Of a stretch of DNA of 32,121 nucleotides, positions 17,493 through 20,462 are shown piece after piece. The stretch spans positions 1 through 32,121 of the forward strand of contig JABIDZ010000089.1 in assembly GCA_018651445.1 (NCBI GenBank). The letters are read 5' to 3'. The stretch's first letter is position 1. Every line of letters begins with the position of its first letter. Origin of the DNA: Candidatus Iainarchaeum sp. GTDB taxonomy: Archaea > Iainarchaeota > Iainarchaeia > Iainarchaeales > JAAZKV01. The position numbers and the translations under genes were made by a program. Under the pieces are notes generated by a model. That model searched no databases. It worked only from the letters and a program-made list of their open reading frames with translations, and had not been told where the DNA came from.

Positions 17493-20462
17493 TTAACTAG
17501 CAATTCGTGTGCCTTTTAGTTTCAAACCGATTACTGAACTATTGTCTTTGTTTAATGCTACTCCAACAATTTGTCTAGCTTTCTTTGTTATTGTGTCGTT
17601 GTGAGTAATTGCAATAAACTGACTTTTCTCAGCAATCTTGTCTATTAAGCTACCCATTTTCATAGAGTTTTCTTTGTCAAGAGCAGCATCTGCTTCATCA
17701 AAAGCATAGAATGGTGCTGGAGAATAAAGTTGGATAGCAAACATGAATGCTAATGCAGTTAATGTTTTTTCTCCACCACTCATTGAATCAATATTTTGTA
17801 GTTTTCCACCTTTTGGTTTTGCATCAATCAACAAACCACTTTCTAATGGGCTGTCCGGATTAGTTAGGTCTAGTAATGCTTCTCCGTTAAAGAATTTTGC
17901 AAACATGTCTTTGAAGTTATGATTAACTTCGTTGAAACAATCCATAAAAACATTAGTTCGTTTAACATCAATCTTGTCGATCATATCAAGGACAGATAAG
18001 CGTTCTTCTTCTAACGTGCTTGCTTTTGTTTGTATCTCATCAACTTCTTTTTTTAGTTCGGTAAAATTGTCCATTGCTTTTAGATTAACTGCGCCGATTT
18101 CTTCAAGGCGTTTACTAACAACAACAAGTCGTTGTTTTAGTTCGTCTACGGTTTTTTCGCCAATTTTTGTAGCTCCTTCAAATTCGCTTTGTTCTTCTAT
18201 AAGATCGGCTTCTCTTACTTCTAGTTTGCTCTTCTCAATATTGAATTCGTTTACTCGTGAATCCATTCGTTTTGCTTTTCCACTTTCAGTATAAATCTCT
18301 TTCTCTACTTTTTCGATTCTTGCGTCTAGTTTTTCTTTTTCTGCGAGGAGTTTAGAATTCTCTTTTTTAGCACCTTCAAGTTCTTTTTCTTGTGTTGATA
18401 CTTCTTCTTCAATTTGTGCTAAAATGGGTCTTTTTTCTTCAATTTCTCTCAAATAAGTGTCAATTTCTTCGCCAAGCGCAGTGTTTTCTTTTGTCAATGC
18501 GTCTTCTGTGCTCTTCATTTTGCTAAGAGCCAATCTATTCTCGTTTAGTTGCGCTTCCATTACAGACTTGTTATGTATAAGCTCGTCTCGTTTTGCATTC
18601 ACCATTGAGAGCTCTTCGAAAACATTTTCTTTTCGCAGTGCGTTTAAACTTTCTTTTATTGTTTCTCGCTTCTCAACAAGAGTTTTTACTTTCGCATCGA
18701 GAGTGTTTTTCTTATTTAATTGTGCTTCAAATTGCTTTTCATCTAGTTCAAGCTTAACTGATTTTACTTTTGATTCTACTCGTTCTAATCGCTCGTTGAG
18801 AACGTTTTTTCCTTCTATTTCAACCATTAAACGAGCAACTAATCTAAGATTGTCTTTTATCACGCCAAGATCTGCTTTAATCGTTGCTTCTTTTTCTTTG
18901 CTTGCGACAAGTTCTTTTTCTGTTGTAACGATAAGTGCTTCTTTTTCGCCTAAGATTTTCTTCTTTTTTTCTGCTTCTAAATTAGAATCACAAACAGGGC
19001 ATTTCGAAATCTCTTTTGTAAGTTCGCTAACGGCTTTTCTTTCTTGTTTGATAACTGCGTTATAATTACTTGATATAGAATTATTTTTTTCTAGTTCATC
19101 TTCTTTTTGTGCTAGTTCTCCTTCTAGTTTTTCGAATCCGCCAAGACTTGTGATCTCATTGTTTTTTGAATCAATTTCAACAAGACGTGCATTAAGTTCT
19201 TTTTCTTCTTCTTCCAGTTCAAGGAGTTTTTTTGTGTTAAAACTTTTTTGTTTTTCCCATTGTTTAATAAAAACTTCTAAATCAAAGTTTTCTTTTCTAA
19301 TTAAATCAATTGCTTTGTTCTTTTCATCAAGCTCCGTTTCTACAACAATAATTTCTTTGTTCTTTGTCTTTGCAACGTCGTCTAAACCACTTTTTTTAGT
19401 AGTAATTTCTTTTAACTGGTCATCTAAACCATTTTTTTCTGTGTTTAATTCTTTTATTTTTTCAGCGATATCATTGATTGCTTGTTTTGATTCGCTCGCA
19501 TTCTTGTTATTATCTTCAATTCGCTTTTTGTTTCGTTTGATGCTAGCTTGTTTTATATCAATTCTTTCTTTTTCAATATTTAATTGTGATTTCTTTTCTT
19601 CAAACTCTTTTCCAACCGTATTGTAGATTTCTGCCGAACCCTTTATTGCTTTACTACTTAATGCATTAGCATCTTGCTTAGCTTTTGAAACTTCTTCATT
19701 TAATTCTTTGATACTTGCTTGTATTTCTTCTTTATTTTTTTCTAGTTCTTTTAATTCTTTATCAATTTCAACAGTTCTTTTTTCGATTTGGTATAATTCT
19801 TTTGAAATAATTGTGGCTTTAATGTCTTTTTTTTCTGTTGATAATCCGCTGAATTCTTGTGCAGCATTCATTTCTTTTTCTAGTTCTTCAAGAAAAGTAT
19901 TTCTTTCGTTTAGGATAATTGTTGCTTCTTTTATTCGAGAATCAACTTTATTTAATTCTTTTACTGCCTCGTCTTTCTTTTGATCAAATTCACTTAAACC
20001 AGCTATGCTATCGATTATCTGTCTTCTCTCTGTCCCTGACATATTAACTACTTTTGTAATATCTCCTTGTGTAACGATGTTGTGCCCCGTAATATCGATT
20101 CCAAATTCTACTAGTAGTGAGTTAACTTCATTTAGAGTCGTTCGTTTTCCATCTAAACGATAAATACTTTTTCCTTGTTTGTCAATCATTCGACTAACTT
20201 CGTAAGTCTTTCCGCCATTTTTTATTGTCAAATCAACTTTAGCATAATTTTCTTTTGCGTTGTTGTATACCAGATCAGTTAGTTTTCCTGCTCTTAGAGT
20301 TTTTAGCGAAGTTATTCCTAATACGAATAACAATGCGTCAAGAACATTACTTTTTCCACTACCATTTGATCCAACAATTGCTGTGAAACCATTGCTTAAT
20401 GGGATCTCAGCTTTCTTAAAAGACTTGAAATTTTTTAATGTCAATTTAACCAGTTTAGTCAT
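17493..20462 (-). CDS. SMC-family ATPase with central CxxC hook-like motif and no recognisable hinge domain
   Basis: Walker A [19 protein letters not shown]. SMC-style [11 protein letters not shown] and [28 protein letters not shown]. Signature [18 protein letters not shown]. Walker B/D-loop [15 protein letters not shown]. Long K/E-rich coiled-coil-like middle with KCPVCDS at Cys488/Cys491 of 989 (nt 18990..19001). Confidence 0.85.
   Translation of the reverse strand: [989 protein letters not shown]

Follow-up and report, generated by a model that had tools for sequence, protein, structure and literature searches.

A probable Rad50-type zinc hook in place of the hinge in the SMC protein of an Iainarchaeota archaeon

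Introduction

How much the hinge of SMC proteins contributes to DNA loading, to DNA binding, and to loop extrusion is a matter of debate. Reviews tell the SMC and Rad50 families apart by their dimerization module, which is a hinge in SMC proteins and a zinc hook in Rad50 (e.g., PMC10586767). Here, we describe a gene of Candidatus Iainarchaeum sp., from the Iainarchaeota/Diapherotrites lineage of DPANN archaea, the product of which is probably a condensin-type SMC protein with a Rad50-type zinc hook instead of a hinge. The gene (17493..20462, minus strand, with its stop codon at 17493..17495) encodes 989 amino acids (aa) and lies on contig JABIDZ010000089.1, in a stretch of 32,121 nucleotides (nt) that was analyzed as a whole and that we call the window.

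The view that the hinge is a mere dimerizer rests mainly on one engineered chimera of Bacillus subtilis (PMC5344682). In this protein, Smc(Zh), the Rad50 hook of Pyrococcus furiosus stands in for the hinge, and the cells grew normally on nutrient-rich medium with a near-normal alignment of the Smc arms (Bürmann 2017, PMC5344682). The Rad50 hook and the MukB hinge have also been found to be interchangeable in yeast (PMC6969161; PMC7752040). As for natural proteins, the ASRP family (ClsN/coalescin and Sph1/2) consists of coiled-coil ABC ATPases of archaea that carry a zinc-hook motif (PMC9389158), and an SMC cluster reported in 2025 from marine Actinobacteria has no hinge domain and, explicitly, no CXXC (PMC12153180). 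Our searches of the open-access full-text literature turned up no paper that reports a zinc hook in a natural SMC. An earlier note on the window, made from its letters alone, had proposed such an architecture for the protein studied here.

Results

We located the parts of the ATPase head in the minus-strand open reading frame (ORF), the translation of which contains every peptide that the earlier note had quoted and has the length of 989 aa given there. The N-terminal head half (aa 1 to 156, 19995..20462, minus strand, as are all parts of the protein), delimited by sequence matches in PDB and an AlphaFold2 model, contains a Walker A motif, GSNGSGKS (20349..20372), an SMC-type arginine-finger region, [14 protein letters not shown] (20265..20306), and a Q-loop, VTQGD (20061..20075). 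The C-terminal half (aa 859 to 989, 17496..17888), delimited by PDB sequence matches and the family alignment, contains the signature motif MSGGEK (17766..17783), the Walker B/D-loop [12 protein letters not shown] (17676..17711), and the H-loop AITHN (17598..17612). The Walker A, Q-loop, signature, Walker B/D-loop, and H-loop motifs are invariant across the family alignment, and conservation in the N-terminal head half reaches 3.2 to 3.9 bits per column. The arginine-finger peptide, QGD, and DEADAALD are all present in the ORF, and we take them, from knowledge of the family, to be SMC-specific motifs.

We then compared the whole protein with family models and structures. Pfam SMC_N covers aa 4 to 974 (E value of 1.5e-41). 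In NCBIfam, SMC_prok_A (TIGR02169) scored 561.7 bits in two stretches, the first of which aligns aa 6 to 500 to positions 4 to 501 of the 1,165 in the model and takes in the N-terminal head and the entire N-terminal arm, and SMC_prok_B (TIGR02168) scored 421.3 bits. Both values are below the equivalog cutoffs (729.4 and 567.35 bits, respectively), which is consistent with the absence of about 170 hinge positions; it is because the SMC equivalog cutoff is missed that these hook proteins bear the NCBI name "AAA family ATPase." The Rad50 equivalog models gave 57 to 114 bits, versus cutoffs of 700 to 1,087. The ASRP model NF045487 matched with its C-terminal part alone (97.3 bits versus the 300 required), and the match to the Rkd4/arcadin-4 model was also partial (56 bits versus a cutoff of 860). 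A phmmer search of PDB retrieved Pyrococcus Smc heads with E values of 3.4e-87 and 1.5e-81, versus 3e-17 or weaker for Rad50. With the AlphaFold model as the Foldseek query, condensin Smc4, Smc5/6, and the head-joint structures of Pyrococcus Smc ranked first, with TMt values of 0.66 to 0.83 for the Pyrococcus heads (0.66 for 5xei, which comprises head plus joint), and Rad50 appeared from rank 16. NCBIfam, PDB, and Foldseek thus all favor the SMC flavor that the earlier note had recognized in both head halves. Nesting of the heads within Rad50, the outcome named there as contrary to its reading, is not what the SMC scores and the SMC identity of the nearest relatives indicate. The heads and arms of the protein are those of an SMC and not of a Rad50.

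Between the heads, the AlphaFold2 monomer, built on an alignment of 81 sequences (mean predicted local distance difference test [pLDDT] score of 77.8), consists of helices at aa 157 to 481 and 497 to 858 joined by a loop at aa 482 to 496, with no globular domain. The two arms have about 320 to 360 residues each. The N-terminal one (aa 157 to 481, 19020..19994) was also delimited by heptads and by alignment to SMC N-terminal arms and would measure ∼48 nm if fully helical; the C-terminal one (aa 497 to 858, 17889..18974) was also delimited by Foldseek and SMC arm alignment. From residue 170 to residue 830, the sequence contains 17 to 18% Glu and 15 to 16% Lys, with one Pro and eight or nine Gly per arm, and the heptad score exceeded the 95th percentile of shuffled sequences in 44% of the 28-residue windows in this middle region versus 3% in the heads. 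The ∼650 residues described in the earlier note as uninterrupted K/E-rich heptad sequence are therefore rich in Glu and Lys and have the heptad signal, but they are not uninterrupted: the model has short helix breaks at residues 440 to 441, 550 to 551, 573 to 575, 611 to 613, 760 to 771, and 790 to 795, the last two at the position of the SMC "joint." Within the family, the heads, neck, and joint are highly conserved, and conservation drops to ∼1.5 bits in the mid-arms; in the N-terminal arm, it is the neck (aa 157 to 225) and aa 271 to 300 that are conserved, and the mid-arm is variable.

No SMC_hinge domain (PF06470) was detected in the query by Pfam, even at an E value of ≤10, nor by a hinge hidden Markov model (HMM) that we built from 102 relatives, and these results agree with the AlphaFold2 model on the lack of a ∼150-aa globular hinge, as had been claimed. 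In one example alignment, residues 481 to 488 of the query pair with residues 474 to 483 of the target, just short of the canonical hinge start, and the C-terminal arm of the query resumes at residues 496 to 510 opposite residues 641 to 652 of the target, near the canonical hinge end. Since the arms are collinear with canonical SMC arms up to the hinge boundaries, the missing part is the hinge and not arm length. As judged from these alignments, a hinge of ∼150 to 170 residues is replaced by a 15-residue CPxC loop.

This apex loop (aa 482 to 496, 18975..19019) carries C488-P-V-C491, with the conserved L481 and L495 at its flanks. The protein has three Cys residues, two of which are C488 and C491 in KCPVCDS; the CPVC motif (18990..19001) is found at a fraction of 0.49 of the chain, near the midpoint, where the earlier note had placed it. 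We assembled as homologues the 120 closest database clusters listed (38 to 99% identity), which range from 939 to 1,041 aa except for one partial protein of 683 aa and one intein-bearing protein. Exactly one CxxC, always of the form CP[VTILF]C, is present in each of the 120, and in the full-length, intein-free homologues, it occurs at 0.46 to 0.50 of the chain, so the Cys pair is indeed conserved in orthologues. C488, P489, and C491 are invariant in alignments of 116 and of 81 sequences; in the former, L481 is found in 114/116 sequences, L, I, or V at position 495 in 115/116, and D or E at position 492 in 115/116. The segment from aa 481 to 495 stands out as a lone conservation peak, with 2.75 bits versus ∼1.5 in the adjoining arm.

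We compared this apex with known hooks by means of a profile made from 43 segments of 88 aa each. Against PDB, the profile matched the P. furiosus Rad50 hooks over 86 residues (1l8d, E value of 2e-12; 6zff, E value of 4e-12) and the human RAD50 hook 5gox with an E value of 0.099; the single-sequence apex gave weak Rad50-hook matches (E value of 0.12). The Pfam domain Rad50_zn_hook (PF04423) was matched by 39 of the 43 isolated apex segments, with a best E value of 3.3e-9. The isolated apex of the query scored 25.6 bits, above the 24.3-bit gathering threshold, and the whole protein scored 20.4 bits over aa 472 to 509, under this threshold. The likeness of the apex to a Rad50 zinc hook, proposed from its position and form, is thereby borne out, and together with the SMC heads and the absent hinge, it supports the chimeric architecture envisaged in the earlier note. 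Each chain offers only two conserved metal-ligand residues; given the tetrahedral chemistry of zinc, such a site would need two chains.

To examine the descent of the protein, we searched 1.84 billion cluster representatives and inspected the best 150 matches. The top matches were hook-type proteins that aligned end to end; from ∼460 bits down, we found canonical hinge SMCs of 1,100 to 1,190 aa, one of them named for Micrarchaeota. Several reduced forms made up a third group. All of the best 150 without a mid-chain CPxC are either hinge-bearing SMCs or hinge-less SMC-like relatives, and the four scanned with Pfam (P0141, P0148, P0150, and P0186) carry SMC_hinge. In a neighbor-joining tree computed from 399 head columns of 255 sequences, the 137 core hook proteins grouped beside hinge-bearing DPANN SMCs, including the Micrarchaeota protein P0150. 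Each of 100 bootstraps kept all 137 hook sequences within a clan that had no more than 160 taxa and excluded the other hinge clades; finer branching was weakly supported (16 to 67%).

The window is an ordinary archaeal chromosome region with genes for TBP, FtsZ, Spt5, and ribosomal proteins. The gene order L44e, membrane protein, smc, Lon_C, and L10-L1-L11-Spt5 is common to the window and the locus of a 39%-identical homologue (L003). A hinge-bearing relative of 1,012 aa (P0141, locus L008) occupies the same slot between L44e and Lon_C, and the gene of the Micrarchaeota hinge SMC P0150 adjoins an L10-L1-L11-Spt5-SecE-FtsZ block. The shared neighborhood and the nearest hinge-bearing relatives identify the protein as the SMC orthologue of the lineage rather than a Rad50, and the change from hinge to hook is the derived state.

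The taxonomic range of the hook form was evaluated in GTDB, scanned with one genome per species, from which we took the best 80 loci. The hook was found in L009 to L018, seven of which are titled Ca. Iainarchaeum or "ainarchaeum" and three only "archaeon" or "uncultured archaeon." The loci of Woese-, Nano-, Aenigmat-, and Micrarchaeota, Halobacteria, methanogens, and Cyanobacteria carry hinges. Two loci are exceptions: L020, from a Diapherotrites genome, lacks both the hinge and CPxC, and L053 is a 913-aa haloarchaeal ORF that gave no hinge match. No genome contributed a second smc-like locus to these 80. The source names in the protein search were Ca. Iainarchaeum, Diapherotrites, and one Micrarchaeota label. 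Among the GTDB species genomes returned, the hook form is restricted to Iainarchaeota/Diapherotrites.

Several variants of the SMC architecture were encountered in these searches. P0241 (968 aa), from an 8.1-kb contig of a Logan assembly, has a CPKC motif exactly at its midpoint and no hinge, and its heads were placed within a different hinge-bearing clade in 100/100 bootstraps; its sequence suggests that it may represent a second, independent hinge-to-hook replacement. P0139, P0143, and P0147 (772 to 810 aa), together with L018, are short-arm hook-SMCs in which each arm is ∼95 to 110 residues shorter and the CPxC is still at the midpoint; P0143 is encoded on a 446-kb Diapherotrites contig, and these are natural "mini-Smc" forms with a hook. 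Five Aenigmatarchaeota loci (L022, L024, L033, L042, and L065) encode mini-SMCs of ∼830 aa that keep the hinge and have far shorter arms; scpA is located directly downstream of smc in 5/5 of them, followed by scpB in L024 and L065. An intein with a homing endonuclease (PF14528/PF14890) interrupts the N-terminal head in P0110 (GW2011_AR10, 1,538 aa), P0127 (1,548 aa), and L014.

We also looked at the genes around smc. A 261-aa polytopic membrane protein is encoded upstream on the same strand (20473..21258, minus strand), with its gene ending 10 nt before the smc start. A 259-aa membrane protein with a faint DUF7847 match occupies the same slot at L003 (mutual similarity is weak, with an E value of 0.003), and no such protein is encoded upstream of the hinge-bearing P0141 gene; the membrane protein may be an operon partner of smc. 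On the other side, a gene for an 819-aa protein with an N-terminal signal/transmembrane segment and a Lon_C (S16) protease domain without an AAA+ module (15018..17477, plus strand) converges on the 3′ end of smc, an arrangement kept in L003 and L008.

Another 261-aa protein (21769..22554, plus strand) was considered as a divergent kleisin, and this assignment was rejected, as the protein matched neither the ScpA/ScpB HMMs nor a PDB profile. Its model (pLDDT of 90.7) starts with a winged helix, contains long helices, and ends in an alpha/beta domain, and its sole PDB matches were weak, MarR/PadR/TrmBL2-like ones (E values of >0.01). The family comprises 62 clusters, is restricted to the lineage, has no Pfam match, and is found on the same contigs as the hook-SMC; going by the model, its product looks like a MarR/TrmB-type regulator rather than a kleisin. 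Farther away, 22565..25873 (minus strand) encodes a 1,102-aa HerA/DUF87-type ATPase that has extremely acidic, Asp/Glu-rich tracts both at its N terminus and internally and ends in a TrmB-like winged helix; at L003, a DUF87 protein is encoded ∼8 kb upstream of smc. An ORF of 1,187 aa (6916..10479, minus strand) has no Pfam or NCBIfam match, and its position beside SecE/Spt5 is kept in the source contig L001. Among the 24 window ORFs of at least 92 aa, none had a Pfam match to Mre11/Metallophos, and no Mre11 was found in the ±10-kb flanks of two homologues.

Discussion

By descent, the protein is an SMC; by architecture, it lacks the hinge that characterizes SMC proteins and has the hook that characterizes Rad50. 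We propose that each chain would fold back at aa 482 to 496, bringing its head halves (aa 1 to 156 and 859 to 989) together as a single ABC ATPase head that caps an antiparallel coiled-coil arm of ∼48 nm. By analogy with Rad50, two chains would share one Zn2+ at their apices through four Cys residues, C488 and C491 of each, giving a constitutive V- or rod-shaped homodimer in which the heads would engage and disengage with ATP as in an ordinary Smc. The protein would serve as the chromosome-organizing SMC of the organism, presumably with a kleisin partner that closes the ring.

Several observations weigh against this proposal. All of the sequences come from metagenome assemblies, and the AlphaFold model is that of a monomer, with a pLDDT of 61 to 65 at the apex. 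About 10 related representatives of 905 to 950 aa lack the hinge and CxxC alike, and the majority fall within the hook clade. These hinge-less, CxxC-less relatives are P0124, P0126, P0128, P0131, P0132, P0136, P0138, P0145, P0151, and P0155 (905 to 949 aa), to which P0161 (838 aa), the sister of a hinge-bearing protein in the head tree, is added; in all of them, only coiled coil runs through the midpoint. Their existence implies either that the hook is dispensable in the lineage or that these proteins dimerize differently, and the nesting of hook-less forms in the hook clade suggests secondary loss of the hook. Finally, with HMMs built from 47 ScpA and 17 ScpB genes next to smc (in haloarchaea, Methanosarcinaceae, Aenigmatarchaeota, and Melainabacteria), ScpA and ScpB were not found in the 3- to 10-kb flanks of the Iainarchaeota smc loci (best E value of 0.2). 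The two genes were not found near the hinge-bearing P0150 (6-kb flanks), P0153 (4 kb), and P0141 (5 kb) either; since the hinge-bearing relatives likewise have no adjacent scpA, its absence at the hook-SMC loci is uninformative.

The hook-less relatives bear on the explanation that survives best among the others, namely, that the protein is an SMC orthologue without a hinge in which the CPxC is an intrachain metal or redox site or a tight-turn motif, and dimerization proceeds via the arms, the heads, or a partner. That same-clade proteins persist with neither hinge nor Cys agrees with this explanation, as does the hinge-less cluster without CXXC in marine Actinobacteria (PMC12153180), and the interchain zinc dimer that we propose is itself read from sequence comparison. 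Yet, the motif, its hydrophobic flanks, and ∼40 coiled-coil residues on each side significantly match the profiles and structures of Rad50 hooks, C-P-x-C is invariant in >140 sequences whereas the adjoining arm is poorly conserved, and the presence of just two conserved metal ligands in each chain agrees with a 2+2 site. We therefore regard a role of the CPxC other than as a hook as unlikely.

Much less likely still, we could be dealing with a separate hook-bearing family of archaeal SMC-related proteins (ASRP/ClsN/Sph or arcadin-4) and not with the SMC orthologue. ASRPs do combine a zinc-hook motif with a coiled coil (PMC9389158), and the query has partial NCBIfam matches to ASRP (97 bits) and Rkd4 (56 bits), but these scores are far under the cutoffs (300 and 860 bits) and under the SMC score, the ASRP model has 593 positions versus the 989 aa of the query, the match to SMC arms extends along the entire arms, and the protein groups with canonical SMC by synteny as well as in the head tree. 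The slimmest chance goes to the protein being the lineage's Rad50, acting with Mre11 in double-strand-break repair and misread because the two ATPases share the SMC_N fold: for all that its apex CPxC is homologous to Rad50 hooks, its 989 aa are near the archaeal Rad50 length (872 to 895 positions in the NCBIfam models), and a gene for a HerA-like ATPase (22565..25873) lies ∼2 kb off, Rad50 models score 57 to 114 bits versus 421 to 562 for SMC models, Smc-head PDB matches are better by ∼70 orders of magnitude, the closest hook-less relatives are hinge-bearing SMCs, gene order at the locus matches that around a hinge-bearing smc, the motifs [14 protein letters not shown], QGD, and DEADAALD are present, and the 24 scanned neighboring ORFs (≥92 aa) gave no Metallophos match.

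An SMC orthologue with a hook in place of its hinge is consistent with a broader scenario, to which we give about an even chance: Iainarchaeota would run their sole SMC without a hinge, a Rad50-derived hook having been swapped in near the base of the phylum, gained again in P0241, and lost in the 905- to 950-aa sublineages. If so, the SMC apex would be an exchangeable dimerization cassette, and the proposed roles of the hinge in DNA binding and entry would be dispensable in nature. The lineage offers a test case of whether it is the length and register of the arms, and not the structure of the hinge, that selection preserves, and it provides full-length-arm, short-arm (772 to 810 aa), and hook-less versions as material for biochemistry. 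On the practical side, surveys that rely on the SMC equivalog model or on the hinge may score the phylum as SMC-less.

How the protein relates to described systems can be summarized as follows. With canonical Smc-ScpAB (TIGR02169; Pyrococcus Smc structures 5xei, 5xns, and 4i99), it shares the head sequence and fold, the SMC motifs, full-length collinear arms of ∼48 nm with a conserved neck and joint, and the neighborhood seen for the hinge-bearing SMC of related DPANN archaea. It differs in that the hinge PF06470 gives way to a 15-residue CPxC loop, in that it falls under the TIGR02169 cutoff, and in that neither scpA nor scpB was found next to its gene; in Aenigmatarchaeota, haloarchaea, and Methanosarcinaceae, scpA directly follows smc. 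With the Rad50 hook (PF04423; 1l8d and 6zff), it has in common an antiparallel coiled coil with a CPxC at its apex, conserved flanking Leu residues, and profile homology over 86 residues; unlike in P. furiosus Rad50 (CPVCG), the second Cys is followed by D or E instead of Gly, the rest of the protein is SMC, and no Mre11 gene was found nearby. ASRPs are much shorter (593 positions in the model) and form a separate family, and the marine Actinobacteria cluster is bacterial and closer to the hook-less relatives of 905 to 950 aa than to this protein.

The closest counterpart is B. subtilis Smc(Zh), which has the identical architecture, in that a Rad50 hook is combined with the heads and arms of an SMC. 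Smc(Zh) is a laboratory chimera, whereas the protein described here is a natural one fixed across an archaeal lineage, which would make it an evolutionary replicate, at the scale of a phylum, of the B. subtilis experiment, in a lineage that naturally crosses the line between hinge and hook that divides SMC from Rad50.

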